Notes under the pieces: model-generated | Databases searched by the model: none | The model's input: the letters and a program-made list of their open reading frames with translations, nothing else | What the model was told of the DNA's origin: nothing | Shown: piece by piece, positions 29,668-63,100 of the stretch | How the letters are laid out: each line of letters begins with the position of its first letter | Position numbering within the stretch: the first letter of the stretch is position 1 | Program-made: the position numbers and the translations under genes | Assembly (NCBI RefSeq): GCF_964355755.1 | Contig: NC_092671.1 | Coordinates: 558,001-622,000 of the forward strand | Source: Antedon mediterranea | Lineage: Eukaryota; Animalia; Echinodermata | Direction: 5' to 3' | DNA: 64,000 nucleotides

Positions 29668-32600
29668 ATGTGGATGTTTTTACTGTTAGGTTTTTTAACA
29701 ATTAATTCCAGTTGTCATGGACAGGGTAAGTTTTTTAGATTTTTTTTAGTTTTCTTTCCATTATCATTGGCTGATTATAAGCAGCTTTTGATTCATTCAT
29801 TCGCTTTGGTTTAAGAATGGCATATTGAATGTGGAATATTTGAGAAAAACTTGATTTAAACTTACTTAACTCAATATATATTGATTTATGTATAAAATAT
29901 ATTATAATATCTAATATTTTACCCACCCACGTAATACATAGGCGTAAGTCATAAGAACTTACATCGAAGCAGCAGTGCCAAAGAGAATTCGTTCTTTATA
30001 ATTAAAATATCCTCTAACTGTTTCTATTTATCCATTTATTCACTTTAATTATAGTTATTCATATTTACGATAAGGATCACCCATTCATATAATTGATATT
30101 CTAACAAATACAAATTTATCTTTTTAAAGAAACTGTAGGAGGCCTATTTAAGTATTGTATATATTCCATTTCCCACAGGCTATGGATCAAAAACACCCGA
30201 TACAAGAGGACGCCAGTTCGTATTCGGAATTCCGAGTAATGTTCGGCAACCAGACAAAATTATTATGATAGTCACGGGACATGAACTGGGGGCTAACAAA
30301 ATAGACGTCAATATTCCAGGCCTCAGATTCCAAAGATCTCAAATGATAAACGGGCTTGAAGAAGCGCGTATACTTCTACCCCCGACAGCAGCAGCTCATG
30401 GATGTGCTATCCAAAATGGAACCGTATTGGTTTCTTCAACGAAAGACGTGTCCGTGGCCGTCTTAAACGATATTGCAAAATCAACAGAAGCCTTTCTAGT
30501 GATTCCTGTGGATGCGTTAGGAACGGAATACTTCGTTGCTTCGTACGACCCACTCCCGGAAGAGTTCTCAGAAGTAGTGATAACCGCGACTATGGATAAC
30601 ACAAGAATAAAGGTTACATTCCAGGCACCGGTCACATACAACGGTATGTCTTACTCGCCTGGTGATATATACACTTTCACACTTCCTCGATTGAGAAGCA
30701 TTCAATTTCAAAGTCATATGGATTTGACAGGAACAAGAATCCAATCAACCGCGCCCGTAGCAGTAGTTAGTGGCAACACGTGTACGCTTGTTCCAGGCAG
30801 ATTACCAAGATGTGACCATTTAGTTGAAATGGTACCACCTGTCCCCACTTGGGGAGGTATGTTCACGGTAATGCCATTTTTAAATCGTACATCTGGTTAT
30901 ATCTTTCGAGTTATCGCAGCACGTGCTAGAACAACTGTTCAAATCTCTGGTACATCAGTTTATCTCCAGAACCAAGGCGAGTTTCAAGAGTTTAATGTTC
31001 CGAGCGATACAATTACAACCATCAGTGCTAACCAACCAATTATGACAATCCAATTTTCAAAGGGACGAGATAGTGACGAAATCGGCGATCCGTGCATGAT
31101 ATTAATCCCACCCGTTGAACAGTACGTCAAAGACAAAGTTACTTTTGGTACATTCAACATGTCAGGTGGTGATTACTTTTCTCCTTATGTGAATATGATG
31201 ATATCATCTCCAGGTATAGTGAGTATGATTAACATCGCTGCTATTCCCTCCATGACGGGGACAACGTACGTCCCTGCTGCAGGAAAGATTGTGAGTTACG
31301 GAGGAGGAAGGTCAATGGCCTTGATGCAAGGAACACATACGATTGTGAATCCATCACCGGGCAATTCTTTCACTGCAATCACATACGGAATTGGTCCAAT
31401 GACGTCATATGGCTTTCCAACCGCTTACAACCTTAAAAAGTTGATATGTATTCGCAAAGATCCGACAACAGGTTAGACATTTCATTACTTTGATTTTGTA
31501 ATATCACATCATTCTAATGCTTTGTAATTTACTTTCCTTTCACTGCATCGGGCTATAATATTTCACGTGATCACTAAATACACGAAATGGGAAAATACAC
31601 ATATAGCGACAATCATTTATTATTTAAAATATTGTGGCAATTAACACAGAAGTTAGAATTTAGATCATTCGTATAAACCTTTTCGCCCAATTCTCACTAT
31701 TGGTTTTATTTCATAATAACTAATAAAAACATTGTTTAATTGCAGGTGGTGATGTCGAATACGTATGTCCTCAACCAGTTGACCCACCAATGCGTAATCC
31801 ATGTACCGGAACAAATGGAATACCGAGTCCAAGTGCACGGCAGGGCATGCAGAATCCAAATTCTAGGCCACCACCGAATCCTAATCCTAACCCAAATCCT
31901 AACCCAAATCCAGGTTCAAATCCTAATCCTAACAAACCAAATCCAAGAGCAGGAGAAGGTAATAATGGCGATCGGCCCGGGGAGCGGCCACCTGCACCCG
32001 GTACCCCCGGTGCAGGTATACCTGGTATGATGCCAGGTATGGGTATGCCAGGTATGGGTATGCCAGGTATGGGTATGCCAGGTATGGGTATGCCTGGCAT
32101 GGGAATGCCTGGCATGGGAATGCCTGGCATGGGAATGCCATGTAGTCCAGGAATGATGATGCCTGGAATGACAGGAATGGGAGGTTGCATGCCCGGCATG
32201 GGAGGGGCTGGTAATGCAGGTGTGGGTGTGCCTATTATGCCTGGAGTCGGTCTACCTGGACAAGCTGGTGGAGGCCCTGGATTCGGAGATGTGCCAGGAT
32301 ATGGATGGGCCTGGCGAACACCACCACCTCGGTTTCCAATCATTCCAACAATACCTGAAAGTAAGTCCTTTGAAATTATATGAGTATTTATTAGGAGCAG
32401 GATCCCGTTGCAAGGTCCGAGGTAAAAATTAAAAAAAAAACTGGTATTCAGAAGCTTTCTTTGTACTTCTGAAGCAAATAAACACAAATTACTAGTTAAT
32501 CTCGGTTCTTACTTGGACGCAATGACGTAAGCGCAACGCAATTGAGTTGAACAATCACGACGCGATCATCCGAACTGTTTTATGTATGTCTATTTTTAAT

Positions 32601-35029: not shown

Positions 35030-36892
35030 AGTGTTTTAAACTATAGGTTAGCTTATCGTCGTCGGCCGAAATAATTACGTTGAAGGAAATGAACTGCATT
35101 GCCCACGTTTAGGGCAAAACATTTGCCTATTTGGAATCGGAAATGTGTTTTATTGACGAATCATTAGCAACCCTTATATAGGGGAAAGTGAACTATAATT
35201 GTATAGCTTTTTGCTACGTCATGCTTCAACAACATGGCTATTTTTTGGAATTTAATCCTCAAACAGTAGGTGACAATAATATCGGCTCAAATTGTATATT
35301 GATCGGAGACCGGATCTAGGCTTATACAAAAGGGTGGAATAACAGGTCAATGCACTTTTTAAATAATATGAATACAGACGGATCAGTAGAACAAATAAAA
35401 TAATGCGAAAAAATAGGAATGATGATGCATCAAACATTTGCTTTCGAAAATTAAAAGTTCGCTAATTTCATAACTATACATTCTACACCTAATTGTTCTT
35501 GCGTGTCGAGTAACTGAAGTTTTAATGATCAAAGAGTCCAAAACAACTATCTAATCATTCCCTTACTTGTCTAGTAAATTGTTTTAAATTCAATTCTGGC
35601 TACTAGTAGAAAGGAAGCTAGTTAATTAAGATGACTTCATCAATTATTATTAATCATTATTATTATTCAAGTGGGAACCGATTTACAATGGAGAAAGGTA
35701 ATGCAGGCCAATGCAAAGATTAATAACTTCTTATAAAATCTTTAATTTTGTTATTGTTTTTTATTTTGTTTATTTTATATATTAAGGCAATTTGCAAAAG
35801 ATAACTATAACTATCCTGCTTAAAGGTGGCAATCCCGTTCAAAAGACAAACATATACACAAAATGCCCTACATAAACAAAGTCTTATTACATGTCTTTGG
35901 GAGTGGAGTTGTAAATTGTCATTAGAAAAAATCCTAACATATGACAGGACTTGAACGCTGGGATTAGTAGCCAAGCATCATAATCACCAAGCCACTACGT
36001 GAATTGCCCCAAATGTTAGGTTCAGCGAATGTCTATATAGCTTTCGATACATATTTTATAGACATTTGTCCTGAATTAGTAAAATATTTTTTGTTTGTTT
36101 CATCAATAAACAGTATGGAAAATAACACTAATTTTCAATAAATAAAATTCAGATTCAGACAAATTGGTTAAATATCGTTGTGTGAACATTTAGTATAGTG
36201 ACAACAAGAGCATAATAGCAACCAGATTATCTGTAACAAAATAATGGGCTGTCATATTGATTAATTTAAATGCTTACAATGGTATCGACAAGTTTCTATT
36301 CAAAAAACAATCCCAGATAGTCACATTAGAATATCTATGGTTAACGCACATTATCAGGCTGTATAGTGAGCATTGATTGGTTTTCTGTCCAGGGATAAAT
36401 TGTTTTGCTTGCAGAAGAGGAGTACACATTAAGTTATAGTCATTATATTTTCACTCTACTGGTCGATTAATTAACATAACATCTTGATTGTAATTTGACT
36501 GGTAAGTTAATATTTTCTTTAGTTAAATATTCCTTCATAATTCTGTGAGTATATTTGTCTCGCAAGTTTTGAAATTTGTTTATTAACTGGAGATGGTACA
36601 GAGTATAATGACTCAATTCATTGAAAGTGAAACATAGCATACTAAATTAAAAGGGTTTGAAGAATAAGCTGTAACACTGATGGACGGGAGTAGTGATTCA
36701 CTAGCACGGGTCGCATAATCATACAGAAAAATGGTCATATATCTACACTAGAATGGAGTATATGCTTTTATAAATTTTAATAGATTAAGAATAAATGATA
36801 CGGAGATAGATTTATAATTAGATTAAATCATTTAAAACTCTTTTGTTTACACAAATATGTATATTTTTATAATCACAGCAGTAAAACTTAAA

Positions 36893-37622
36893 ATGTCTAG
36901 AGGAAAAACAGAGAGCGGTGAAGGACTTTTCTCAAACTTATTTACCACAAAACCTACAAAGGGTGTAACTAAACAGCGAGGGAAATCTAAAGATCGGTAT
37001 CACGAGGACCCACCTGAGCCGCTCCCGGGTGAGTATGACTCCGACGAGGAAGGGCACTATCATAGTTCGTCAAAGGAAAAGTCATTTGGTTCAAAATCAA
37101 AAATGCAAAGCCTATTCACAACCCCTAATCATGACAAACCTGAACATCGTGCCAAGTCCAGTTCTGCAAAAGTCGAGTCGAGTCGGGGTCGAGAAACTCC
37201 CAAAAAGTCTAAACTACAGTCGCTTTTTGGAAGCGCTGACGATAGTAAATCAAGCAAAAAGAAATCACAAGATCGATATCATCAAAAGAATCCACATGAA
37301 AAGAAGCCTGAAAAGGGAGAATCAAAGGGAGGAAAAAGCAGCGGACTAGGCGAGGGATTATTTTCCAGTGGTAGTGGAACTATAGCCGGAAACAGCGGAA
37401 AAACAAAAGTTGGAAAATCAAAAGGTCACTCTTCTGGACGGGTAGGTTTCAATGAGTTACTTTGATTAAACATTAAGTAAATGAACAAAAAGATTGTGGA
37501 GCTGAAAGTGTAGATTTCGAGTCAATTCAAAGTAAGTTATTACAAATCATCTTAATATTTTTCTTCATTTTTTTCAGCAACAGCCAGCGAAAGGTGCTAG
37601 TTTCAGCTTCCCTTCATTTTAA
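36893..37622 (+). CDS. Uncharacterised Lys/Ser/Gly-rich, probably disordered protein, about 197 aa
   Basis: A long GC-richer ORF follows an acceptor; ATG at 36893 to donor CGG|GTAGG at 37441 (phase 0). Exon 37578-37622 encodes QQPAKGASFSFPSF*. Peptide repeats GEGLFS x2, KSK(M/L)QSLF x2 and KS(K/Q)DRYH x2 show synonymous divergence. Confidence 0.7.
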
Positions 37623-44592: not shown

Positions 44593-47500
44593 TTAAGGCG
44601 GTGGTAAATTATGATTTTCTAAGCCAAGAGGTGAAAGATTAAGTGGAACTAAAGAACAAACACAGCTGCTTGGTATTGCTACCCATTCTACAGATATTAC
44701 TGGCTTTGATGGGTCAGCACATGATTTGATTGTCACTGCTCGTCGCCATGCGTATTTCTGTTGACATTGACCAAATCCAAAGTTGCAGTATTTGAATCTG
44801 AAAATAAATAATTTTAGAATAAACTGATTATTGTTGCGGACAACACTCATTGGCTAAATAACTATGATCTTGATGAACCTATCTTTTTTAAACAACAGCG
44901 CCACCAATAATTGAAACATATGAGAGATATTTGCATGATTGAGAGTGGCAAAAGAGCACATGTTTATGTTTATCCACAAAAGTACGTTAAACTATACATT
45001 TTTTAACCAGGTGTCTAGACAATTATTTTTATTGCAAAAATAAAAACAGCATTGTGCCTTTCTAAAGTTATTATTATTGAAATAAAACTTACATGCATGC
45101 TTTGACTTGGAATGACTGTGCAATTTTCCCCGGTACTTGAAGCACTTGAACCACATCTCCATATTTATTATACGCTTTTGTGACAAGAATCTGGAAAAAG
45201 TGTTCTGGGCATGGCACACCAGGGTTGCGAAATGGCATAACAGGGATTGGTAGGGGCCCAAAACCTGGCATACCAGGTACACCGGGACTTCCATTGGGAC
45301 CTTGATCACCCGGAGGGCAATAATAAAACCCAACAACTTGTCCTCCATTATCTGTTGCTGGATTGAACGGAGTTGGTTCTTCTTCGGTTGCTGTAAGTAT
45401 ATTTAAACAATTAATATATAGCATTCTTTGTAATCCACCGTGTTGATGTAAGTATATTTAAACAATTAATATATAGCATTCTTTGTAATCCACCGTGTTG
45501 CTGTAAGTACATTTAAACAATTAATATATAGCATTCTTTGTAATCCACCGTGTTGATGTAAGTATATTCAAACAATTAATATATAGCATTCTTTGTAATC
45601 CACCGTGTTGATGTAAGTATATTTAAACAATTAATATATAGCATTCTTTGTAATCCACCGTGTTGATGTAAGTACATTTAAACAATTAATATATAGCATT
45701 CTTTGTAATCCACCGTGTTGATGTAAGTACATTTAAACAATTAATATATAGCATTCTTTGTAATCCACCGTGTTGATGTAAGTATATTTAAACAATTAAT
45801 ATATAGCATTCTTTGTAATCCACCGTGTTGATGTAAGTATATTTAAACAATTAATATATAGCATTCTTTGTAATCCACCGTGTTGATGTAAGTAGAAACT
45901 TCTTTTTTTAAAAAAACTTGATTTTTAAAGTATGAAGTTATCGTTTTCTAGTTATAACATAACAATCATTTAAACTTACGGGTTTTCTGACAAATGTACC
46001 CTAATTTTCGATTGCAGTTATAATCATCCCATTTATAATCATCAACGGATCGCAATCGAACGCAATTCTGATTTGTTCCTCCATTTCGGCCACCTTGTGC
46101 AAAATCATAAAAGGTTGGTTGCTCTCCAGTTACCCATTCGAAGTTGCGCTCGCGGCGTCTATCTGATAGCCCGATCCAAAGATCTCCCGCGTATAGGTCT
46201 CTGGCTCTCTGCTGGACGAAACTTCCGATATCTGGATCTGTCAAGACTACGAGGTTGCCATTGTCGTTTTCACAAGACCTTTGAGCTTCTTGGAATGTCA
46301 AAGCTGGACTCAAAGCGAAGCAATAGCACTTTCCACCATGTGATTCAAATGGTGGTCTACATTCTGAGTAAAATAATTAGTATCATAAAATAATAATTGC
46401 TTTTGAACTATGTAGTGTGCGAGAAACACCACTAAATATTCTCTGATCAGCTTGACTAAACTTTGTTTACAACTTACTTCCATCAAATTCTTGAGTGACG
46501 GATGACCCACCAGGCCCACCTACACCACCAGGTCCACCAGCACCGCCTTGTCCTCCCGCAGGAATGTCTAACCTCTCACCAACATACGTATTTCTGAATC
46601 CACCATGGAAAGCAAACGGTCTATATGTAAAGAAATATTGCTGCAATTATGTCTATAATATAATATTTTAAAAGTTTCTAATATAAATGTAGGTACAGGA
46701 GGTTTCGGTGTACTAAGCATTAGCATTAGAAATTATACATCTATTTATTTAGTTTATTCGTTTCTCCTCATTTTGTGAGACTTATCTCATTGCTCGTTTC
46801 CATGACGTAATCTCCATCTTGTGGTCTCTTGTTTGTTTGTTGATTTCTAATATCATTTTCCTGGTTATAATCTAATTGTTAAATCTCCTTAGTTAAAGTG
46901 AAAACATTTCCCACCCACATATGGATGAAATGGATGAAACATGCAAATTAATATACTTACGTCACCGGTTCTGGGCTTGCGTATGGCTCGTCATTGTTCA
47001 ATATACACTCGTAATCTTCTTTTATCTTTCTCAGGACATTATCTCCAAGTTTACTGAAAAGAATGAATGTAGATAACTATATAAATTTCGGTTGACATTA
47101 GTGTAACCTGAAGTTTCTCAAACCTGCTTAATGCAATATTGTTCAAGATGAATAAACTTACGCTATACATGACGACAAATCTTCAACTGCTCCCCAACAC
47201 GATACCACCAATAAACACGTGAAAATGGTTATTGCATTTACTCTCTGTGGAATGTTCAATTTACAATTAAAGGTAATAACATGAAAATGTTTTTGATTAA
47301 AGTTATCAGTAATTGTCAACTTTATACAACAACAAACTTTAAGTAAATATCTTACTTAAGAATAATTTAAGAAATATTTCTGATTCAAATATAATGTAAG
47401 CCAACATAAGCCAATTAATATTCATTTCATTTAATTTCATTATTTATTTGGTCTATTTAAGTATATGCAAAACAAAAAAAACTGAAATTGGGGAGACCAG

Positions 47501-49138
47501 GGTCAACCTAAGTGAACTTAATCACTGTAGCTGAGCCGGTGACGTAAAGCGGACGCATTGCAGATGGAATATTTTGATTCAGCAATTATTATATGTAGCT
47601 ATGTAGCGTTTGGAAGATGTATCATAATAATATTATTATGTAAGGAATGTTTATATGACAGATATTTATCATTCATAATAGAAATGGCATTATTCTATAT
47701 AAATTATGTTTCATTGTAACCACACGGCACGCCTAATAAAAGTTATAAGAGGTTTGAAGTAGACAACAGTACAATTACTCGCTAGCGTGTGCGTACATTG
47801 TTCAACAACACTTGTCTACCTCTAGTGTTTACAGATTCGTGCAGAGATCTCATTGCCCTTGTTTCACTAATAATGTATTCGGATTTTAAGTTAATTCTTC
47901 CATAAGTTAAACGATTATAGAAACCACATGACATGATAGAACATTATTTGTGTTTGTGTTTACATGGGCGTTTAACACAATGATTAATGAAAGCAAAGTA
48001 TTTCCGTTGAATATTCATTAATTCATTTGTTTTTAATAATTATTTTAGGTTAATACTCTAACTTTGCTGTATGTTCATTCATTCAATAGCATGTAGGCCA
48101 TTGGTGCAATAGCATGTAGGCCATTGGTCCAATAGCATGTAGGCCACTGTTCCAATAGCATGTAGGCCACTGGTCCAATAGCATGTAGGCCATTGGTGCA
48201 ATAGCATGTAGGCCATTGGTCCAATAGCATGTAGGCCACTGGTCCAATAGCATGTAGGCCACTGGTCCAATAGCATGTAGGCCGCTGGTGCAATAGCATG
48301 TAGGCCACTGGTGCAATAGCATGTAGGCCACTGGTCCAATAGCATGTAGGCCACTGGTCCAATAGCATGTAGGCCACTGGTCCAATAGCATGTAGGCCGC
48401 TGGTCCAAGTACAATAATATACATATATTTAAATTGGAGTAGTAGTAACAGCAAATATGCGAATATTAGTTTAATTTCTCGTTCAAAAACAAAATAGGGG
48501 TAGTATAAAGTAATTTATCAGCTAATTATGTCATTTTCCTAAATAAAAATTGTACAAATGTTACCAAAAAAGGTATCGCTAAACATGTGATAAACATTGG
48601 CATGTTCTCAACAACAAAAATAAATCAAGTAAGTCCAAGGAAGTTAGGTTTGAAACAAACTAACCATCGGCGTGGTATTTATGCAAGATTCTATACTAAA
48701 GTAAACTGTAAACTATTAAAAACTTAAGTATTTTATTAAGCTTCAACTGTCTATAAAAAATAAAAGATCTATATTTTAGAGATTCTCTAAAAGCAAAATA
48801 ACACACGGTAATATAAAAGCTAAAACGTTACGCCTGTTATTTTTATTATCTTTTATTGACAACTGGGAATAACAGTGTCCAACATGGCATACAAATAGTA
48901 GGCGATACAAGCATGAAAATAGCAATAACAAACTTAAATAATATTTTCACTAACTTTAAGAACTTCAAAAACAAATTTTGACAGTAATAAAGGTTCAATA
49001 GAGAATAAAAACACAAGGCTATGACAATGTGTGTGTGCAGTAAATGGGCATTCACATAATGCGTGAAATTTGCCGCATTTACAAAGAAGTTCATCAACAA
49101 CGATCTAAAAGTAAAATAATTTAAAAAAAACATACCAT
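44593..49138 (-). CDS. Secreted C-type lectin / Spaetzle-like cystine-knot fusion protein, about 402 aa (paralogue A)
   Basis: Exons 49138-49136 (ATG|GTATG, inferred), 47244-47162 (signal peptide RVNAITIFTCLLVVSCWG), 47053-46961, 46620-46478 (Gly-rich), 46363-45980 (CTLD: C..CY..A...C...L..WIGL..W..C..WDD..C..YIC), 45390-45093 and 44797-44593. Knot region reads CPEH...AYNKYG...Q.F....C....C......CQQKY......EWVAIPSSCVC. All phases join into one open frame. Confidence 0.85.
45391..45893. repeat. Tandem minisatellite, 55 bp, about 9 copies, built from a splice-acceptor region
   Basis: Unit (C/A)TGTAAGTAYATTTAAACAATTAATATATAGCATTCTTTGTAATCCACCGTGTTG starting at 45391, 45446, 45501 and so on. Confidence 0.97.
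45980..46363 (-). CDS. C-type lectin domain exon (symmetrical phase 1-1, 384 nt) of paralogue A
   Basis: Long-form CTLD cysteine pattern, WIGL motif and WDD in place of WND. Acceptor TTTTACTCAG, donor GTAAGT. Confidence 0.92.
48084..48407. repeat. Tandem minisatellite, 23 bp, about 14 copies
   Basis: Unit CAATAGCATGTAGGCCAYTGGTS. Confidence 0.97.
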
Positions 49139-49602
49139 GTCTTTTTTTGGTTCACAAAATCTAAGTTGAAATTGTTCGTTTTCAAGTCAATCAATTGATG
49201 GTGCGGCGGCCTACTGCACTAGAACATGTATCTGCAACAAGTTGACAAAGCATAGTAAGTACCGCCTTAATCTGACGGTTAGCATACGGTGTTGGGAGTT
49301 AAGTACCGAATGAATTCATCCAATCTATATCCCTCAAAGACTGTTCGATATACACTCAAGTGTTTGATGACCTGTTTCACTGTAACTTATCCATCTGGGA
49401 GAAGTTCATGGTAAATCTCATTATTAGTAAATTAATTAAAACTACTGGGCGTGATTTAAAAAATAGTTGAGTAGATGTTTGATATTTTCGTTCGCCTACG
49501 TACTGTATATTGTGGCAGTGTGTTATTTTCGTTCACATACGTACTGTATATTGTGAAAATTTCTTCTGAATTCAAAAATAAATGTAGTGATTTACTTGAT
49601 AC

Positions 49603-51188
49603 AATAAAAGTATTGCTAGAGTTTCTTACGCATACAAAAGTATTGCGAGAGTTTCTTGCGCATACAAAAGTATTGCGAGAGTTTCTTGCGCATACAAAAG
49701 TATTGCGAGAGTTTCTTGCGCATACAAAAGTATTGCAAGAGTTTCTTGCTCATACAAAAGTATTGCGAGAGTTTCTTGCTCATACAAAAGTATTGCGAGA
49801 GTTTCTTGCGCATACAAAAGTATTGCGAGAGTTTCTTGCGCATACAAAAGTATTGCGAGAGTTTCTTGCTCATACAAAAGTATTGCGAGAGTTTCTTGCG
49901 CATACAAAAGTATTGCGAGAGTTTCTTGCTCATACAAAAGTATTGCAAGAGTTTCTTGCTCATACAAAAGTATTGCGAGAGTTTCTTGCGCATACAAAAG
50001 TATTGCGAGAGTTTCTTGCTCATACAAAAGTATTGCGAGAGTTTCTTGCTCATACAAAAGTATTGCGAGAGTTTCTTGCTCATACAAAAGTATTGCGAGA
50101 GTTTCTTGCTCATACAAAAGTATTGCAAGAGTTTCTTGCGCATACAAAAGTATTGCGAGAGTTTCTTGCGCATACAAAAGTATTGCGAGAGTTTCTTGCG
50201 CATACAAAAGTATTGCGAGAGTTTCTTGCTCATACAAAAGTATTGCGAGAGTTTCTTGCGCATACAAAAGTATTGCGAGAGTTTCTTGCGCATACAAAAG
50301 TATTGCGAGAGTTTCTTGCTCATACAAAAGTATTGCGAGAGTTTCTTGCTCATACAAAAGTATTGCGAAAGTTTCTTGCGCATACAAAAGTATTGCAAGA
50401 GTTTCTTGCTCATACAAAAGTATTGCGAGAGTTTCTTGCTCATACAAAAGTATTGCGAGAGTTTCTTGCTCATACAAAAGTATTGCGAGAGTTTCTTGCT
50501 CATACAAAAGTATTGCGAGAGTTTCTTGCGCATACAAAAGTATTGCGAGAGTTTCTTGCGCATACAAAAGTATTGCGAGAGTTTCTTGCTCATACAAAAG
50601 TATTGCAAGAGTTTCTTGCGCATACAAAAGTATTGCGAGAGTTTCTTGCTCATACAAAAGTATTGCAAGAGTTTCTTGCGCATACAAAAGTATTGCGAGA
50701 GTTTCTTGCTCATACAAAAGTATTGCAAGAGTTTCTTGCGCATACAAAAGTATTGCGAGAGTTTCTTGCTCATACAAAAGTATTGCGAGAGTTTCTTGCG
50801 CATACAAAAGTATTGCGAGAGTTTCTTGCTCATACAAAAGTATTGCAAGAGTTTCTTGCTCATACAAAAGTATTGCGAGAGTTTCTTGCGCATACAAAAG
50901 TATTGCGAGAGTTTCTTGCTCATACAAAAGTATTGCGAAAGTTTCTTGCTCATACAAAAGTATTGCGAGAGTTTCTTGCGCATACAAAAGTATTGCGAGA
51001 GTTTCTTGCGCATACAAAAGTATTGCGAGAGTTTCTTGCTCATACAAAAGTATTGCGAGAGTTTCTTGCGCATACAAAAGTATTGCGAGAGTTTCTTGCG
51101 CATATAAAAGTATTTTGAGAGTTTCTTGCATATACAAAAGTATTGCGAGAGTTTCTTGCTCATACAAAAGTATTGCGAAAGTTTCTTC
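49603..51188. repeat. Tandem minisatellite, 30 bp, about 53 copies
   Basis: Unit CATACAAAAGTATTGCRAGAGTTTCTTGCK; it accounts for all four long ORFs at 49475-51395. Confidence 0.99.
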
Positions 51189-52893
51189 TGGAGAAAGAAT
51201 ACGTAAATTATTATTCGATTCTCCTTCTTCTGTTAACATATATTTTTGTTCCAATTTTATATTGTTGAATTTGAATTTCTTACAAGTTCTCACAACTGTG
51301 ACTGACAACATATTACACTGAGAACATATGCTATTCCAAGGGTTTAGCAACCATATATATTTTTTGAGTGACGTTACTATATTTAATTTGGTCAAGAGTA
51401 CTTCATCGAAGTTGGCTAATGAAGGTCAAAAGTGTATTTTATTATTTTCATTATTTATATACTTATTTCTTCATGGTCAACCAGTCAATGATTTGTTTAG
51501 AATCCTTTTCTAAATAACAGTATTGTACTATGCTATGGTTACACAGAGAAATGTGTCCAGAAGAATGTCCAGAAACAATAGCTTAAGAGAAGAAGAAATG
51601 GTGAAAAATGCTTTAGGAGAGTTTAAAATTCTGTAATATATATGATTTTTGATTAAAACTGATTAATATCATCTTCAAAATTACAATTCATTTCTTTTTG
51701 TATAATTAATAAAATACTCATAAAGCCATGATATGGTGTTAACACTAAAACAATGATAGGGTTACTGCTAATAATATAGGAAGCTTTCAATTTTGCCGAA
51801 TCTTAAGTGAATATCACCTTGTATAATATTAGGTTCTGTTGTACAAAAATAGAACGCTCTCAATGATAAGCAGGAAGAAAACATTAATAATAAACACAAA
51901 TCTGATAAATACTGTATTGTGTTTTTATTTCTATTGTGTATAAAGTGCGGCAACCATATTAAGCATGTTTTACAGAAACATGACAAGCACAAAATTAAAT
52001 AACAAACGTGCAAAGAGGATTGATCTTGTGAAATGGAAAGTTCCGTACAATTTAATTGATTGGATTTTAGTATAAACAAGATTAGATTGAGTCTTGAAGG
52101 AAAATTACTTTTTCCATTCACTTCTTAAGATATGGAAAGTTAATCAAGAAAGTACAATTAGGGTTTACCGGTTCTTTTACTCACTGGTGGTAAGTTTATA
52201 AGCAAGGATGTACTTAAATTTGGTACGAACTAGTTAAGTACTGACTTCTGACTTAACAAACAGCTTTGGAATATTATTATTCTTAGAAGAATACAATATG
52301 TAATTATTTTTATGGTTTTTTAACATACCACTTATGACTACCTTTGTACTAAGTTCGTTTGTTTCTTTACGAAGAGTCATTTTCTAAGTACCCTAAACCA
52401 GCTTACTTAAACACACAAGATATGTTAGTAGCTATCGACTCTGATTGTGTTTTGTTGATTAGATTATGCTATTTAGGTCGAGTACTCCTAAAGGAATTTG
52501 TTAATTTTAATTGTTACCACGCAAACCACATGACTTGATGAATGCTTAATGAGATAATAAAAGTTAGTAGATATTAGTTAATGATATAAAATAATTTGCT
52601 TAATCTTACCACATTCTTTACCAAAGACTGCAGTATGGTCAGAGTATTTACGTTAAAGATAAATTATAATGTTACATTTTGGTTAAAACAATTCCCCTCG
52701 TTTTAATAACTTTAATGAAAAGATATATAGGACTTATATATATATTAGCAATGAAATCACATTTGTATGCTTATTCATCTTACTGTTATTAAGTTTGTTA
52801 TATTATTTATGTATGTGAAACAATTAAATAAATGAATGAAAGAATTTTCAACGAAATGCTTTTTAAAAGTCCAATATACTATATATTACTTAA

Positions 52894-55527
52894 TTACCAG
52901 CTGTAAATTTCAGACCTTCTACGGTTTTCTTCCGCCAAAAGAAATAGATCTCTAAAAGATGGAGCTTGGAAGCATTCACACGAACATGGTAATGCAATCC
53001 ATTCGATCTTTAATACTGGAAGTAGACGATTGAATGTTGCATGGTGTTCACAGTTCTTGACGATCAAAGCTCGTCTCCAACAATACTTTTGAATGCAGCT
53101 TCCAACCCCTCGGTTACACCGTGCATTACTGTAAAAGAAGACATTACTGTAAAAGAAGACATTACTGTTTTCAGCATTCACGTTTTGTAACTCTCAATAC
53201 GAGATTTGTTTTAAATTTAAAAACAAATATCCCTTAGTAGAAGACACATTTGCTACAGTGTATAGTTGTTGAAAAAAACTCTTTCCTAACACATTTATTT
53301 CATGATTTGAAAGGACTTACCGACAAACGGTGATCCTTGGTTTTTGTAAAAGATTCATAGCAGGATTCGGATTATGAGATTGAAAGAGCCGAACCTTTTG
53401 TCCATATTGGTTAAATGCAGAGTCAATAGGTCTCATTCTTGTTCTACCAGGACACATTTCACCAGGGACATATCCGGGAACAAAGATACCAGCATTTCCT
53501 CCATTTCCACCGTTACCACCATCTCCACCTGCACCACCATCCATACACGGCGCTCCTTGTGCACCGGGTCCCCCAGCCCCTCCCGCTCCTCCGTCACCAC
53601 CACTGCCACCAAATCCGCCGAATCCTCCATTACCACCAGTTCCTCCCGTTCCTCCGCTTCCACCAGGAGCCGCCCCAGCACCTCCACTACCCCCGTTACC
53701 ACCACTTCCTAAAGAAAACATTCACATATTATTTTCTATTGTCGTAATATTTGTGGCAAATGATCCTGATTACATCATTTTATGATTGCTATATTTTAAT
53801 ATAATAATCATATGTGGTTTTACCTCCGTCTCCAAATACTCCAGCGTTTCCTCCATTACCACCGTTTCCACCCGTTCCACCTGTATCGCCTACTCTGAAC
53901 GCGGGGCCTGCATTACCCCCATTACCACCGTTACCGCCATTCATTGTATCAATCACATACTGCTCTGGCCTAAAGTAAATAAATAATACATTTAGAAAAA
54001 AAACTATTGGATTTGAAATCGATTCAATATTGCGACCTTTATCTCTAACATTGTAGTATTAATTAGAATTGGAGAGTGATTGATTTGGAAAAAAAAGTAT
54101 AATTTTACGTCACCGTTGCTAAACTTCAGTTGTTTTTAAAAGAAGAAAATAAGTAGTTCTTTCCAAAGACCTTTTTAACCAACAAGACAATGGTGTAATT
54201 AAAAGCAAGCATACGGTGTTCAATGATGAACCAAGTTGATATCGAGGCGTACGTAACTCAACGACTCTTGACAACATACGTGAATAGAAGTACTCAACGT
54301 TTTAAGTTTCGTTTTAAGTTTATCAAGTTTACTATCTTTTTTTTGTAATATCATCAGTATCAATAGTATTACTTGTCTTCGTTTTTATTGAACGATTAAA
54401 AAGGCACATTGCATAATAAGAAAGTCCGTCCTACATGAATGTGTGTCCCCACCACCACAAATTGAGGCATTATATACACGCACGTGTGGCTTGTGCAACA
54501 CACACAACGGTAACATTTTAACTACTGTATTAATCGAACTATTTATGTTAACCAATCAAATAAATTTTATAACTTACGATATAGTATCTGGGCTTTCAAA
54601 CGGTTCGTCTTCGTACAGACATCCATACCTTTCTTTAACATCTTGTATAAATTCTGCAGTTAATGATGTACGTCTAGATAAAACAAAACACGTACTTAAT
54701 TAATAATATCGGTAATAACACCTTTAATTTTATGCCGGACATAAATTATAATAATGACGAATACATATGACATAGAAATAGCCTGTAGATAAACTTTATT
54801 CGTCAAAAATTGAATTTTTTTTTTTTAAATTGTCTTCCTTGGCAAGATAGGATATGAAATATATTTAAAATACGATACAAAAATATAAACATTGCAACAT
54901 TTAAAATTCCGAATTAAAAGTTCTCTTAAATTTTGAATTAAAAGTTCTCTTAAATTTTGAATTAAAAGTTCTCTTAAATTTTGAATTAAAAGTTCTCTTA
55001 AATTTTGAATTAAAATTGTGTATTGGGTTTGGAATACAAATGATTAATGTTGTATGTTACCTATAATGTGTACTTATGAAACAAAACCAAAATGATATAA
55101 TACCAATAATAGCAACAACAACCAAGCAATACCAATCCCTTACCCTATACATAAAAGCAATGATTCAAACGTTGGGTTTCGTGGAGGCAAGTAACTGTAG
55201 TATGGGTCTGGGCCGACGGCTGCACCATTTACTTGAATACATAATATACATGTCAAGAAAGCCGACAAAATCTAATTTTAAAATCAGTAAAACAATATAC
55301 AATTAGCCTAAAAGTTTCAAATATATTTCATATTTACTTCAGCTTCCGCTATAATCCATATAGCAATAACATGTGATACTCGCGTGTATTATTTCGAGTA
55401 AACTTCGAGTTAAGCTAAATTTTATTCACAAGTTGAACTTAAAACTATAAAGCAGTTATACTTATCCAATAAATGAAAAAAATAAAACATTTATAATAAA
55501 ATAAAAATAATTTACCGTTTTAAACAT
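52894..55527 (-). CDS. Secreted Gly-rich Spaetzle-like cystine-knot protein, about 334 aa (paralogue B)
   Basis: Exons 55527-55516 (MFKT), 55271-55144 (ILSAFLTCILCIQVNG, signal peptide), 54673-54578, 53969-53824, 53708-53321 (GGx repeats, then CPGRTRMRPIDSAFNQYG...QKPRITVC) and 53128-52894 (CNRGVGSCIQKYCWRRA...EWIALPCSCEC). Phases are consistent and intron phases match paralogue A. Confidence 0.87.
54911..55015. repeat. Tandem repeat, 24 bp, about 4 copies
   Basis: Unit GAATTAAAAGTTCTCTTAAATTTT. Confidence 0.95.
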
Positions 55528-55796
55528 CGTAGATGGTTTATATTGCAGCAATGTTGTTTTCTAGAGTCGATCGTCAAGGAGACTGTTCAAAATGTACTTA
55601 GATATTTGCAGACAAACTTATTGTAAATATGAATTTGCATTACTTTCAATGAAGACTTATTATGATTTACTTGAAACGCACTTAACCTTGTCAGTAATCT
55701 TCTAACATCTGCTCAAATACCGAATCAAGCAATACGCATTATTATTTTTGATTGGTTGACAATTTGGGATTATTACAAGCATCTAGCCTACATTAT

Positions 55797-56200
55797 ACAT
55801 TTACATAAAGGTAAAGTTCGGTAAATTGCGTGTAACTTTTAGAATTTTTACTCGATGGTATATAAAGATCGGTACTGATTTTAACCACCTAATGTAACCC
55901 TGTTTACTAATTAATTTGAGTTAGATAATTAGTTATTGACAATTAAAACGAACTTAGGTTAAACAATTTTCCGCGAATTGGGGTGTTTTCCGAATATGTT
56001 ACACACACCGTCCGTGGTTGTTGACGCTGAAACATACCCGCACACAATAATACGAGGATACATCGCTGAAGTCTATCTGCGTTTACAGTCATTGTTTTTA
56101 ATTGCTGAATGTCGATTACAAGAACGTAATGGTAAACTATTTAAGTCATAGAAAATCATGTTTTACTTTGTAAAATGGAAAATGGAACGTTCCAACCTCT
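55797..56200. mobile_element. Dispersed repeat, inverted diverged copy of 26610-27070
   Basis: Reverse-complement similarity over about 400 bp, judged by eye. Confidence 0.7.
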
Positions 56201-56420
56201 CTTCCAATTGTCCATCAGACGTAATACATCAGTGCCCAACAAACCAGCACTCATGACAGATCCGGTTTTATTTTATTTATTCAGTGAATGCAGTTAGTTA
56301 ACAAATGTTCAACCGTTTCAGGAATTTAAACGCCGCAATCGATAAATAAAGATTTCTGTGTTGTTTTTTTTAAACCCTAACCATGCAGCATAGATAATTT
56401 GCATTTTGTGCCACACCAAA

Positions 56421-56866
56421 AGGCAATGAACTGTGTAGTTGTCTGGCTATAGCTGCCTATTTTTCTGCTGTAACCAGTCTCACATTAGCAGCAGTAGTAG
56501 AGAAGGGAACAATAGGCAATGAACTGTGTTGTCTGGCTAGCTGCCTATTTTTCTGCTGTAACCAGTCTCACATTAGCAGCAGTAGTAGAGAAGGGAACAA
56601 TAGGCAATGAACTGTGTTGTCTGGCTAGCTGCCTATTTTTCTGCTGTAACCAGTCTCACATTAGCAGCAGTAGTAGAGAAGGGAACAATAGGCAATGAAC
56701 TGTGTTGTCTGGCTAGCTGCCTATTTTTCTGCTGTAACCAGTCTCACATTAGCAGCAGTAGTAGAGAAGGGAACAATAGGCAATGAACTGTGTTGTCTGG
56801 CTAGCTGCCTATGTTTCTGCTGTAACCAGTCTCACAATAGCAGCAGTAGTAGAGAAGGGAACAATA
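56421..56866. repeat. Tandem repeat, 88 bp, 5 copies
   Basis: AGGCAATGAACTGTG...GAGAAGGGAACAAT starting at 56421, 56514, 56602, 56690 and 56778. Confidence 0.97.
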
Positions 56867-57312
56867 GTAATGCTGCAATGTGAAAAGTAAAGGAAAATTT
56901 TCGAAAAATGACCAAATTTCGACCTTTTTATTTTTTGATATAAATTGTTAATATGACACTATAAGATGATGATAATGCAATAGGCCTATATGTGCATATA
57001 TGGCAATATTATTGCATAATAATTGAATTTTAAAAACTGCTGTCTTTATAGTATGTCCTATGATTAGGGCTGTATTTAAAAAACCGTAAAGTATCAGACA
57101 ATACACAAGATCAACAAAGGAAACACAAATATTCCTAAATTGAGATTTATTTACATTTGGAAAAATACAGTTTTACTAGTTAATACAAATTGCATTTACT
57201 TAATTCACATCAAAATAAATCACTTCATTCGACAATCAAAACTTTTGGTTTATTTGGAATGAACAGTTAGATTTTCTTTCAGTTTGTGATATATAGTATT
57301 TATTTTCATATG

Positions 57313-57706
57313 TATATATATAAATCCAACTGAAAAAAAAATGACAATGCTGTGGGTATCAGTGGCTGGATCTCAATGGAGATACAAAAATAAAAAGCGA
57401 AAAGCTAAATCAAAACGATAAAGTAAACAGCCAGAAAAGTTAGCAGAGCTTTCGGGCAACACTAGCCCTTCATCAGTGCAAGTGAAGGAATTTATATATC
57501 GTTAATGACGTCAATGACGTTATCCAAATTCCTTCACTTGCACTGATGAAGTGTTGCCCGAAAGCTTTGCTAACTTTTCTGGCTGTTTTACTTATCGTTT
57601 TGATTTAGCTTTTCGCTTTTTTTTGTATCTGCATTGAGATCCAGCCACTGATACCCACAGCATTGTCATTTTTTCAGTAATTTGCCTTTGGATTTATATC
57701 TATATA
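57313..57706. mobile_element. Inverted pair of Penelope-like element terminal repeats (arms of about 180 bp)
   Basis: 57329-57492 is a near reverse complement of 57526-57678, and each arm contains a hammerhead-like core. Confidence 0.75.
57441..57482 (-). ncRNA. Minimal type I hammerhead ribozyme (Penelope-associated type)
   Basis: Minus strand UUGCA-CUGAUGA-A-GGGC-UAGUGUU-GCCC-GAA-AGCU-C-UGCUA: intact core, 4-bp stem II, palindromic AGCU stem III and short GCA/UGC stem I. Confidence 0.75.
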
Positions 57707-58634
57707 CTTATTCTGTTTGTGGAATTTTCTTGTTCGCTTTATTATGACTTTCCGAATTAAAGATGAATTTAATTGAATTGCATACTCTGCAGCAAATACA
57801 ACATTTTCAACACTGAAGTTACCTAATGTGGGACGTAATGCAAAATGTATTGAACAATTAATGTATAGTTAGTTTATCAGACACATACACGCCACCTATA
57901 ACGATCCAAAGATCTTGCATTTTATGCACTTAAACAATGCACTGTAGTGAAATTGCAGTTTGTTTACATAAGCTTAATAGGAAAAAATATATATACAAAA
58001 TAGGATAACAATATTTACCATTAGTTAATATTTAAAAGTTTAGAAACGTTTGACGTTCTGTGCGTTGAGAAATTTTACCGAAACAAAGAAAAAAGAAATA
58101 ACTTTCAGCCAAAAAAAAAAAAACAAATCTATGATAGAAAATTTATTTATTTTGAAATGTTTACTGTAACATGAATTTTAAATAATTTATGTACAAAATA
58201 TTTGATTTCATTTTAGTTTTAACGTTTTACACAATACTATAGCAGCTTTTTTTTAAATATAGAAGATAATTTAGTCTATAATTTAAAGATTGATTTAAAT
58301 TACATTAGTATTAATGATAAATAAACAAATAGATCACTATTATCTCTATACATTATCTTAAGTCATTATGAATTACCTTATTTATATTGATTTGCGCTTG
58401 CATTGTTTCAACATTTCACGAAAAATTATAATAATTTTTTTTCTTCTAGATTTTGCTTGGTATCTTTAACAGCTAGTTCCAATTACATTCTTAAAAAATC
58501 ATTTATTTTGGTGTTTGTGTTTTTGTTATGTTGGGAGAATCGCATATTAGATACAGTATATACCATAATGGATATTTGAAAGAGTGATGTTAATAGTAGT
58601 TAAACATAAAGATAAGGTAATATTTGTAGTTGCA

Positions 58635-60158
58635 TTATTGGCCACAACATCCTATTTTACTAGGCAATGTAACATCTCCAACTGGGGGTAGGATAGCAAC
58701 TTGTCCGTCTCGTTCTTTGTACTCTTCATATTTCCTAATCTTTAGTTGGTAGAACAACATGCCGATGCCAAAGACGGCGATTAATCCGCCAAAGAATCCC
58801 GCCCAAAGTGCTGCTACAGTCTCTGGCGTGAAACTGCTACCAGTTTGTTCTACATTTGTATCTGCAAGAGAGAATAAGTTCCAACATTACACGAATATTT
58901 TCATTCATTTCATTACATAATCCGTGTACAACAACTTCTAAATGAGTGAATTGATGGATTGAAGTACCCGGGAATAAGAAGATATCTTTTAAAATCTTCC
59001 TGGAATAATAGGACATAATTTGTTTTATTCGCCAATTTGTATTCCTATCGTGTTTATTTTTCTTTATCTTTTATACTGGACGAATAGTTAGAAACCTAAA
59101 AGCAAGAGCGGTATTTGTTGGATGGTGTGTTGTACTAGTAGTAGCTAGTGTGATAGTGTTATGGCGGAGTAGTAGTTTGAGGTAGTACAGTAGTAAACAA
59201 ATATGTAATCAATAGCATTACAAGTGATAGTAAACTAGTAGCATTGTTGTTACATATTAACTAGTGTCTGGCCATGAAATAACAGTGATTTATAAATAGA
59301 AATATTTGGAATTATGCCAACATATTACATAGAATACGTACAATGGAATTAAATCAACGTAGGCGTTTTGAGTTACTCGAGTATTGTAGTTGGTACCAAC
59401 AAATCTATCTCGTGCCATATGCTATACTGTTTTAAACCTGCTTTAAGCAGGAGGAAATTCCCTAATGTTTAATCAAATATGTATAATCATATTTTGGAAT
59501 AATGCCAAGAAATGGCGGTAACTTGAAACGCGAAATCATTTCCAGGATTTAATATCACAAGACGTAGTAGGCCTAAATGGATTAACAGAAAAGGATAGCG
59601 TCTTTCAAGCCATGCTTTGCAATGCATGCATTTGAAAGTGCTAGTGTATGTTACCCGAATGCTCTGCAAAATTCCTATCTGGGCGTTTTTATCGATTTGA
59701 TTAGATTTTTTTAAATTTTAGTTCTTTTCACCATTGAGAATCAAGCCACTGATACCAACAACATTAAATAATTTGCCTTTTGATGAATTGGCAGGATTAA
59801 AAGTAGATTATATGAGTCCTTAGGCCTATATGAACATTTTTGCCAATCTCTGCAATAGGGCTACACAACCTGTCGATATGTCTAGGCCTACATAGGCTAC
59901 AAATTTCTGTGCGAGGCTGTGAGCTAAAATTAAGTTTTGTTTTCGTTTTTCACAGACATTGTACATGTGTACCATAATTATTCACACAACCTGCGTGAGT
60001 GATAGGTTTAGCATTCAATAGAAGCAATAACCGTGTCTTTTATTAAATCAAGTAGAGTAGGCATAGTGGTTCCCATGCTTACCTTTGTCAGTCGTGTTGT
60101 TGGCTTCCACTAATAGTAACGTCCAACAGACGTATATGGTTCCCAGTAATGTTTTCAT
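58635..60158 (-). CDS. Uncharacterised small type I membrane protein, about 100 aa
   Basis: Exons 60158-60083 (MKTLLGTIYVCWTLLLVEANNTTDK) and 58861-58635 (DTNVEQTGSSFTPETVAALWAGFFGGLIAVFGIGMLFYQLKIRK...KIGCCGQ*), phase 1 junction. Signal peptide, N-glycosylation sequon, TM helix and basic stop-transfer residues. Confidence 0.75.
59620..59785 (+). mobile_element. Degenerate third copy of the Penelope-like terminal repeat
   Basis: GCTAGTG..TGTTACCCGAATGCTCTGC...CATTGAGAATCAAGCCACTGATACC...AATTTGCCTTT aligns by eye with 57545-57695; the ribozyme core has decayed. Confidence 0.55.
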
Positions 60159-63100
60159 TGGTTTAATTACCCTCCTGTCAAGACAGAACATAACATACAA
60201 TACAAGACATTAGTTTACACAGTCAAGGTATATGTAATAATATAACATTATTACCAATATAACAATGGTCTTTCTACAACAAGTAAATAATCATAAAACT
60301 CTCTTTTGTTCAAGTTACTTTTCTTTTACAAAAAGTGAACTTTTACCTAACAAATCAACTGTTAACGTTTAACAATGATTTAGTTTTAATAGTGTTCATG
60401 CCGGTTGAATAGTATCAGTCTTTTTAGAAGAGTTAATTCTCGTATTATGCCCAGTCGTTTTATTCTTTTACAATTAGTCACACAGTAACCACTCCGTATT
60501 ACTGTAACATTTCAAACTTTGTGTGGTCAACTATTATTATTACTTATTATTACAGTTTATACTGTGTTAGAAAAGCTGGGACTTTTATTGTACATGAGGC
60601 TACTGGCAGTATTCAAAATGTAAGTATTATGTCTGTGACAGTGTAGCAGTCGTAACAGTTAAAAGCATGTATCCGTCTAAAGTATCAAGATACAATTACT
60701 GTACAAATAATAATTAGCGGGACAGCACCATTTATATACTTCTTTATCTATATTGAAAAAATGTATTGCCTATAGCAAATGTAATCTTATTTTTACAATT
60801 ATTACCAACTCGGACTGGATTAATTGTATTCTTTTTTATAAACGCATTCCAATAACAATACGTCATCCAAAGTCAATAATGTTGTGGATGGTATGCTTGA
60901 CGTATTGATTATTTAAATTGTATTTCAACAAAAACACAGAAAATCATTAGGAATACAGATATTTACGCCCTATTATGATGAGGCAATGAATTATTCTTAT
61001 GTTTTTATATTAATATTAGAATTTCGGAAAAACCCAAGCGTCAGCTCAGTTATAAAGTGAACTTGATGAAATATATAATTCCTTCCCTTAATAATTACTT
61101 AATAACCTAATCTCACAATACAGTAACCAAAAGATTATATCAATACTTTAACTGGTTTACATCAAAACATCAAAGTTCTACAGTTATTAATGGTTTCTAA
61201 TGAATATTTTAATTGGAAGCACTGGAATAGCAAGAAAGATCAATTAATAGACTACATTACTATGTCCAAGAATAAGAAGAATGTTAAGTACACTAATAGG
61301 CCTATCTCTATTCGTTCTGGGTTACTCACACTTTAGTTGTATTGTTATATAATTAGTAGTAGTAAGGTTTAAAGATGTGCAGAACTTGATTACAACCAAA
61401 ATCAGCGGAAACTATCCACAGGTGTAAGGCATGGTAGACAACGTTACGATTTTAAAACGTGATATTTTGATTACATCTATAGGTGGCGCAAGTCATGTAC
61501 TCATAATTTAAATAAACACATTCACCAGTATTTGTATAACTGAGCATGCGCTTTAAAATAAGTAGTTCAGTTTTCAATAACAAAATTAATCTAGCATACT
61601 TTTGATGGTATAAGACCGTACGTTTGCAACATGTTCAAAGCAGGGAGTTGTAAAACAACTCCCTGTTCAAAGTCTGTGGTTTTAGTTACTTTTCCAATAC
61701 GATAAACTACTAGGCTTACAAATTAACTTCTGTTTCCCGTTTATGATCTCAGTAAATTTAATCGTTTCTATCATCCCAACGTCACATAAATCTCTCCGCT
61801 TATGTTACTTTATACTTTGCATATATCACAGAAAAATATATTCCGTTTATTTCTTATTATATAAACTGGATGAACTGTTTTAACTACATTAGGCCTACAG
61901 TACCCTATATAACTTTATGCACAAAGACGGTGGGCTACTGTACTTAATGCAAGGCGATTGTCATACTTTGACATTTGTAGGCCTACTCAATCAAATCAAA
62001 TTAAAATAACATCTTACTACCAGCAATTATATGATACTAAATAATGAAAAGCCATTTGTCCATTATCATGGTAAAATCGCGTTTTAGAACTTAAGTTTAA
62101 AACGCGATAATATCGTGTCGTAAAAAAAAACCAGTTTTGAGAAAATGAAAAACACTTTTGCTGTTTTATTTTATCCTATAGCCCCAATTAAGTAACTTTT
62201 AAACGCAATACCAATCGTGCAGACTTTTCGTGAAATTTAAAATACCTCAATAAAAGCCCCTATCATATGGACACAGTCAATTATAGAAATCCCCTATAAT
62301 GGATAATAACGCCCGTATTTTGGAAAGATTTCACCAACCCCACTCGAAATTTACGATACAGGAGTACAGTTGTAGATCCAACACTTAATCAAGGCATATC
62401 ACCAAAACTACTATGGTAAACCGATACCGTCTTAATACTGGTACACCCTTAACATTAATAAAGTTTCCTGTGTAGAATCAGCTGATAACCAGAACATAAA
62501 ATAAACTTACTGGTATAAAGACACTGGTATAAAGACAATGGGATAGGAGCGACGGCATCACCAAGAGTAATTGTTCTATAAAATATCATTATCCAGTTTG
62601 TAGATACTGTATTATGTAAAGTTCTTTATTATTTATTTATTTATTTCAACTATATTTATGATGGTGGTCCATCCAGCCGAAGCTAATCATTACTCTAGGA
62701 CATTTTTTTATTCCAATTCAACAATACAGTAAATAAGTAAAATTTCATGAAACAGGGTAACCACAAGTGTTACCACAAAAAAACGAAAATAAAGGAATAT
62801 TAGAAGGGATTTGAATTAAAATTTAAATGAAATTAATTGGACATTTAAAATGAAATCGTAAAGGAAATATAAAGGAAGAATATAGTTTAGTCAGATGTAT
62901 TGGTCCTTCGGAAATTCATGTCGGAATTGAAACAATAAAATTAGAGCACAACCAATATACACTGTACAGGATAAACATAAAAGTAACAACCAATACCGTA
63001 TACATATTTAGCGCACGAATAGAGTGCGTATTTATAACAAATAAAAAGATATAGGCCTAAAAATCTTTTTTTCTTCAGAAAATGTGTTTGATAGATTTGT

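Follow-up and report, generated by a model that had tools for sequence, protein, structure and literature searches.

The stretch analysed here, 64,000 nucleotides of the crinoid Antedon mediterranea (contig NC_092671.1, positions 558,001 to 622,000), is referred to below as the window. Between positions 44593 and 49138 its minus strand carries a gene for a predicted secreted protein in which a C-type lectin-like domain is followed by a C-terminal cystine knot. About 4 kb upstream of this focal gene, at 52894..55527 on the same strand, lies a tandem paralogue with a related knot and no lectin domain. A preliminary description of the locus had proposed that seven exons of the focal gene join in frame, and this is borne out: together they give 1209 nt, that is 402 codons and a stop, with the frame open throughout, GT at 6/6 donors, AG at 6/6 acceptors, and intron phases of 0, 2, 2, 1, 1, and 2. 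The RefSeq protein XP_071943699.1, uncharacterised and placed in a singleton protein cluster, is identical to this model from exon 2 to the stop, and is counted here as an independent annotation that joins the lectin and knot exons.

All exons of the focal gene lie on the minus strand. Exon 1 (49136..49138) contributes only the ATG and ends in a phase-0 donor. Among 45 candidates in 47300-52800, each a phase-0 donor preceded by an ATG in frame, a generic donor matrix ranks this donor first; that of the alternative exon 1 used by RefSeq (47797..47934), which adds 46 N-terminal residues ahead of the hydrophobic stretch, came fourth. Because its donor ranks best and the paralogue likewise has a short phase-0 exon 1 (12 nt), the ATG-only exon is likely the true start. 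Exon 2 (47162..47244) encodes the signal peptide, predicted from hydropathy (peak 2.37) and by eye and of ordinary appearance with this start, as well as C27 of an N-terminal two-cysteine motif, and its junction after 'CI' is common to the paralogue. Exon 3 (46961..47053), homologous to exon 3 of the paralogue, supplies the remainder of this motif (C45) and a predicted helical hairpin, the two helices of which reach a predicted local distance difference test score (pLDDT) of ~72 in the full-length AlphaFold2 model. That model, built from three sequences, has a mean pLDDT of 37.5 with the lectin domain unfolded, and is useless for domain contacts. Exon 4 (46478..46620) forms a Gly-rich linker with a phase-1 donor, its counterpart being exon 4 of the paralogue (146 nt, same phases). 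Exon 5 (45980..46363; 384 nt, symmetric phase 1-1) contains the entire lectin-like domain and is without a counterpart in the paralogue. Exon 6 (45093..45390) comprises an acidic Pro/Gly linker (isoelectric point (pI) 4.05, 14 Pro/55), C260, six Gly-X-Y triplets, Arg290, and the first half of the knot (C296, C334). The second half (C339, C346, C361, C380, and C382), assigned from Pfam Spaetzle and NGF matches and from the fold, is encoded with a short tail and the stop by exon 7 (44593..44797). Exon 6 matches Pfam Collagen at an expectation value (E) of 0.026 only, and a collagen-like role for the triplets is a lead only. The linkers as a group are acidic (pI 4.1-4.8), and the mature chain has a pI of 5.4 and is without a regular repeat.

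Exon 5 alone matches Pfam Lectin_C (PF00059) with E 6e-21, and the match within XP_071943699.1 has E 1.1e-19; at 71.6-75.6 bits vs 22.6, the family cut-off is clearly exceeded, and both the WIGL core and the conserved cysteines are present. The exon is thus a complete C-type lectin-like domain, as the preliminary description had held. The role of the EPN/QPD and WND motifs in the Ca2+/sugar site of such domains is well established. Alignment with 769 lectin domains, taken from proteins matched by the whole-protein search, places GRN in the EPN/QPD column of the focal domain, QNC in place of EDC, and WDD in place of WND. GRN occurs in that column in 0/769 of the aligned domains, whereas EPN is found in 244, QPD in 26, and the middle Pro in 504/769, and the Ca2+ site 2 motifs of sugar-binding carbohydrate-recognition domains (EPN or QPD, WND) are absent from the focal domain. 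EPN/QPD-type motifs are named as the canonical Ca2+/sugar-site motifs of C-type lectins in excerpts of PMC5379193, and, judging from the GRN, QNC, and WDD columns, this canonical site is altered in the focal domain. The best per-domain matches are mannose-receptor-like repeats of the acorn worms Glandiceps and Ptychodera and of the crinoid Anneissia, and such repeats are a plausible donor class for the lectin exon.

The C-terminal 97 residues match Pfam Spaetzle (PF16077) with E 5.8e-5 and 24.1 bits, under the curated cut-off of 27. Exon 7 alone gives E 5.4e-5 for Spaetzle, and for NGF (PF00243) E 0.021 and 15.4 bits vs a cut-off of 27; NGF is not listed for the whole of XP_071943699.1 in the Pfam scan, the neurotrophin profile threshold not being reached. 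The paralogue and its relative in Anneissia, described below, score 9.8 and 13.4 bits with PF16077. When the features of the ESM Atlas are compared, a Spaetzle cluster comes first (0.91, 196/256 shared) and an NGF cluster next (0.90), and a Spaetzle cluster is also ranked first by predicted structure, with a template-modelling (TM) score of 0.80. The AlphaFold2 model of the knot stretch is all beta (pLDDT 73.7, predicted TM score 0.56), and the preliminary claim that the C-terminus would model as a cystine knot stands, with NT-3, NGF, BDNF, and NT-4 matched by Foldseek at TM 0.63-0.76 (probability 1.00). Coagulogen follows the same fold with TM 0.72, the single Spaetzle chain listed has TM 0.47, and among the matches listed solved neurotrophins are the top 17 at E≤0.001 (16 of 17 rows). 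The knot profile searched against PDB sequences gave 0 matches at E≤10. Knot positions I-VI correspond to C296, C334, C339, C346, C380, and C382, the last two forming a CxC motif and C361 being extra, with a presumed disulfide pairing taken from the predicted fold. The C-terminus is, as modelled, a knot of the NGF/Spaetzle/coagulogen type and may belong to any of these branches; the term Spaetzle-type used in the preliminary description agrees with the best Pfam and ESM matches, but is slightly narrow for a domain whose fold is matched better by neurotrophins and coagulogen than by the one Spaetzle chain listed, all the more as Spz-like neurotrophins with several exons are known from sea urchin and acorn worm (PMC2772990).

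Several details of the knot can be compared among the three crinoid proteins, which were aligned with one another. The residue adjoining the fifth knot cysteine is Ser, not Cys, in all three, and, according to sections of PMC2772990, a Cys at this place lets Sp-NT2 and certain Spaetzles dimerise covalently. In the same text, Spaetzles are said to conserve a Pro close to the fifth Cys as well as an Asn of the first hairpin; all three crinoid proteins retain Pro377 and Asn309, which may correspond to columns 136 and 18 of that work, a mapping made by eye from the spacing. The loops between Cys II and III and between III and IV are short (4 and 6 residues). Two further knot cysteines present in the relatives are both missing in the focal protein. 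Prediction of a knot homodimer, run without an alignment, scored 0.02 vs a mark of 0.32, which speaks neither for nor against a dimer.

A tblastn search of the window with the focal protein located a second locus (52960-54699) that matches the N-terminal motif and the knot, and not the lectin domain. It belongs to the paralogue introduced above, which has six minus-strand exons (55516-55527, 55144-55271, 54578-54673, 53824-53969, 53321-53708, and 52894-53128), encodes 334 residues, and equals RefSeq XP_071943700.1. The protein consists of a signal peptide, the two-Cys motif, a 123-residue segment with 52% Gly, a nine-Cys knot, and a conserved tail, and it has a relative in Anneissia japonica, XP_033107877.1, with 72% identity. 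Both are uncharacterised, their source names being 'uncharacterized' and 'co-chaperone protein p23-1-like'; the latter name was rejected, as Pfam finds no such domain in XP_033107877.1. The tail of the paralogue contains three consecutive Arg, conserved in Anneissia. The N-terminal two-Cys motif is homologous in the focal protein and its relatives, its score being reached in 0/5000 shuffles with either relative. The five introns of the paralogue lie at residues and in phases (0,2,2,1,2) equivalent to those of focal introns 1-4 and 6, and the 384-nt phase 1-1 lectin exon, which sits within the shared phase-1 intron, is the sole addition in the focal gene.

From these correspondences the focal gene is very probably a tandem duplicate of a lectin-free, Gly-rich knot gene into which a phase 1-1 lectin exon was inserted by exon shuffling. 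As two crinoid genera conserve the lectin-free form, the simplest course is a tandem duplication with later gain of the lectin exon by exon shuffling, and we infer this direction rather than a loss. The search for paralogues and for a donor covered the window only, and found there no further lectin exon besides focal exon 5. The focal knot is 34-38% identical to those of the two lectin-free relatives, so that either the duplication is older than the split of Antedon and Anneissia or the focal copy is fast-evolving, and three sequences cannot decide between the two. The paralogue had been missed in the preliminary description, and it explains the origin of the fusion. Lectin domains have been shuffled into many invertebrate proteins; the present case would be an unusually clean one, in which parent and derived gene adjoin, the introns match, and a single phase 1-1 lectin exon has been added. 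A further outcome is the recognition of an uncharacterised family of Gly-rich crinoid proteins whose knots, of the Spaetzle/neurotrophin type, escape Pfam at its cut-off.

XP_071943700.1 and XP_033107877.1, which represent the direct parent family, thus share with the focal protein the N-terminal Cys motif, the intron positions, and the knot, but differ in the lack of a lectin exon, in a long GGx segment, in two more knot cysteines, and in a conserved basic C-terminal tail that is absent from the focal protein. The segment in question has 123 residues, 52-53% Gly, 22 GGxGG matches, and one Arg. Because the segment is Gly-rich with GGxGG repeats and its lone Arg is unconserved and far from the knot, the parent family has the look of a structural protein and not of a pro-ligand that is cleaved. 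The GGx repeats of the paralogue might form a polyglycine-II bundle.

Intron 5 of the focal gene is filled by a 55-bp tandem repeat (45387..45894, 9.2 copies, no strand assigned) that copies the acceptor region of exon 6. Eight of the nine upstream copies read AT rather than AG, and the ninth keeps AG (45500) and is out of frame. Sequencing runs X2 and X3 both come from the DNA of a single sample, possibly the source of the assembly itself. A single X2 contig spans 45865-47431 in one piece and with no differences; it carries both the lectin exon and the exons whose homologues make up the 5' half of the paralogue, and the former thus truly lies behind the latter. Another contig spans 44319-45421, and the repeat itself is bridged by no short-read contig, with depth 0 over 45448-45809. 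Such an unbridged intron might reflect an assembly mis-join at the repeat that fused two unrelated genes, one for a lectin and one for a knot. The sequences on either side of the repeat, however, are homologous to a single paralogue, with order and phase preserved, and the X2 contig ties the lectin exon to those 5' of it, so that a mis-join appears most improbable.

It is also conceivable that the focal gene is a duplicate in decay or in rare use, or that its lectin exon is mostly skipped, the fused protein being seldom made. Skipping of exon 5 leaves the frame intact and yields 274 residues, so that a lectin-free isoform is possible; the tandem repeat has copied the acceptor of exon 6; the protein is a singleton, with no fused-form orthologue found in Anneissia by the knot profile search; and its knot is only 34-38% identical to relatives that share 72% between themselves. 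Three coding differences are seen in other reads, namely S370A (one contig at depth 4.2, maybe an error), F300L, and P246T, and replacements make up 3/3 of the differences listed in the focal gene vs 0/2 in the paralogue, a weak hint of relaxed constraint with too few changes to weigh. Run X1, from one sample of unknown tissue, contains RNA, as seen from a spliced joint elsewhere in the window; it shows no spliced RNA over the focal gene or the paralogue, and its unspliced pieces at depth 3-5 are uninformative either way. Decay, rare use or predominant skipping is nevertheless unlikely: the 402 codons remain open and 12/12 splice dinucleotides intact despite deep divergence from the paralogue, none of the six knot cysteines has been replaced, the lectin core is retained, and the RefSeq model includes exon 5. 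Moreover, the extra knot cysteines of the relatives are both missing, as would be expected for a disulfide lost under selection if the two are paired with each other.

The preliminary description had regarded the architecture as undescribed, and limited searches turned up no second protein with both domains. Neither the word-based nor the exhaustive nor the ESM Atlas searches, each with its own blind spots, revealed another protein combining a lectin domain and a knot. The word-based knot searches, which reach proteins of at least 119 residues sharing 5-residue words, returned only XP_071943699.1 itself (1/8 and 1/26 candidates), and the knot profile search retained 3/92 candidates, namely the focal protein and its two lectin-free relatives. 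In the exhaustive whole-protein search 0/149 other proteins match the knot profile, among the best 150 of 7350, which are swamped by multi-lectin proteins. The Atlas contains no cluster with both families among clusters of 50 or more. The full-text literature likewise yielded no such lectin-knot protein, a weak negative limited to a collection with few subscription papers and to the unaccented spelling of Spaetzle, and a survey of lectins from bivalves and other metazoans makes no mention, in its text or its one supplement, of spaetzle, cystine or NGF (PMC10140915). The pairing of lectin and knot, known so far from one species, is real and apparently undescribed. Spz-like multi-exon neurotrophins as such are already on record for sea urchin and acorn worm (PMC2772990).

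Of the two functions proposed in the preliminary description, a knot-dimerised matrix lectin fits the present data better than a releasable ligand, the latter being weakened by the GRN motif, the unconserved Arg, and the Ser beside the fifth knot cysteine. We estimate with a probability of roughly 0.45 that the focal protein acts as an extracellular-matrix linker. It would be secreted by means of its predicted signal peptide; the knot, together with the spare cysteines C260, C361, and C122, would likely join chains into dimers or oligomers; the non-canonical lectin head would likely bind protein or mineral and not microbial sugar; and the lectin exon would have added a binding head to a structural or matrix parent protein, as in echinoderm skeletal lectins. 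This reading is favoured because the sugar motif is altered, Arg290 is not conserved, Ser stands beside the fifth Cys, and the parent segment is Gly-rich. Coagulogen is a gel-forming knot protein and represents a non-cytokine use of the fold, and its presence among the fold matches is counted here for a matrix role. With horseshoe-crab coagulogen (PDB 1aoc) the focal knot shares the fold over 95 columns, but with 21% identity, and coagulogen is without a lectin domain or a Gly-rich linker.

The acidic Pro/Gly linkers beside the lectin domain recall the echinoderm skeletal-matrix lectins, which are described in parts of PMC4336488 as secreted C-type lectins with an acidic, Pro-rich low-complexity segment and a lectin domain. 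SM50, PM27, and Ophiocoma SM20-24 resemble the focal protein, as predicted, in being secreted and in having one lectin domain, and its acidic linker may correspond to their low-complexity segment; they differ in that those parts of PMC4336488 describe no cystine knot in them, and the focal lectin domain matches mannose-receptor-like repeats best. A number of points weigh against a matrix linker. Feather-star skeletal lectins are said in PMC7351957 to be free of repetitive domains, with only two reported among 280 skeletal proteins; the lectin domain (pI 6.8) and the knot (pI 9.1) are themselves not acidic; and the neurotrophins that head the fold ranking represent the fold of signalling ligands. 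The middle Pro is absent from 265/769 of the comparison domains too, so that a non-canonical motif is common and compatible with sugar binding at another site. To these may be added the missing Anneissia orthologue of the fused form and the bias toward replacements, both noted above. A matrix linker, if confirmed, would show a cytokine fold once more put to structural use, here in an animal that regenerates and is heavily mineralised.

Arg290 is the sole Lys/Arg within the 60 residues ahead of the first knot cysteine, and it is the pivot of a different proposal, in which the protein would be a tethered sensor and ligand: the lectin domain would bind microbes, a serine protease would cut at Arg290, and the freed knot would activate a Toll-like receptor, bypassing the insect cascade. 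In a variant, target binding by the lectin head would expose Arg290, and the released knot would signal via an echinoderm Toll-like or Trk/p75 receptor. The best matches of the knot by Pfam, by ESM features, and by Atlas structure are to Spaetzle, and a precedent exists in shrimp MjCC-CL, a lectin domain fused to a second domain able to engage a signalling receptor, which bridges microbes to a cytokine receptor; in that protein, however, a coiled coil stands in place of the knot, and the lectin domain, of canonical type, demonstrably binds glycans (excerpts of PMC5645147). In the focal protein, by contrast, GRN, QNC, and WDD replace EPN/QPD, EDC, and WND, and no Arg precedes the knot in either lectin-free relative, neither of which has any basic residue near its knot. 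The cysteine beside the fifth knot cysteine is lacking in all three crinoid proteins, and the literature search yielded no paper on a Spaetzle-type Toll ligand for echinoderms. We consider this tethered sensor and ligand quite unlikely and its variant equally so. Were a tethered ligand nevertheless to be found, it would short-cut the cascade of recognition, protease, and ligand in one molecule and offer a first approach to an endogenous ligand, of the cystine-knot type, of echinoderm Toll-like receptors, with the unfused parent gene as a built-in control.

Comparison with the Spaetzle family itself (PF16077; insect Spz1-6, crustacean Spz7-8) reveals in common a six-Cys C-terminal knot, a predicted secreted precursor, a multi-exon gene, and a Pro just ahead of the fifth Cys. 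The focal protein differs in its score below the cut-off, in the extra C361, in the absence of a Cys beside the fifth one and of a conserved cleavage Arg, and in having a lectin domain and Gly/Pro linkers where Spaetzle has a pro-domain; its host, moreover, is a deuterostome.

The fold ranking would also be compatible with a matrix-anchored, neurotrophin-like growth factor, in which the knot would signal via Trk/p75-type receptors and the lectin domain would hold it on the matrix or the cell surface. The neurotrophins (PF00243; NGF, BDNF, NT-3/4, Sp-NT2, and acorn-worm NTa/b) provide the best solved-structure matches, and ambulacrarians own multi-exon, Spz-like neurotrophins as well as Trk/p75, of which sea-urchin Sp-NT2 shares with the focal gene the multi-exon structure and has the Spz-like Asn and Pro (passages of PMC2772990). 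On the other hand, identity to them is 15-24%, the knot profile matches no solved chain at the level of sequence, and the Pfam NGF match is marginal. The short Cys II-III-IV loops are another departure from neurotrophins, as are the extra domains, and no dibasic or RxxR (furin-type) site is found between the lectin domain and the knot. Such a growth factor is improbable in our assessment.

The remainder of the window contains several other genes and repeats. On the minus strand, LDL-receptor class A, EGF, and YWTD-like exons (Ldl_recept_b, E 0.00064) at ~2100-14740 are part of an LRP-type receptor gene, and a carbohydrate sulfotransferase domain (Sulfotransfer_2, E 3.7e-41) occupies a single exon at 22042-22875. 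On the plus strand at 30139-32383, a single long exon encodes an IgGFc-binding domain (Pfam E 1.1e-61) and is followed by an exon of Pro-Asn and Met-Pro-Gly-Met-Gly repeats, a composition that recalls biomineral-matrix proteins. A 209-codon open frame rich in Lys, Ser, and Gly, with no Pfam match, lies at 36836-37465 (plus strand). A small minus-strand gene at 57832-60200, with a hydrophobic and probably membrane-spanning last exon (58635-58886) and no Pfam family above cut-off, is spliced in run X1, where the joint 58861-60083 has a depth of ~1230. The segments 47423-47540, 48843-48976, 55584-56297, and 56655-57725 are high-copy dispersed repeats, as judged by contig depth in the DNA runs. 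Finally, tandem repeats of the window with units of 64, 33, 23, 30, and 88 bp yield long spurious open frames, such as the one at 49600-51425.

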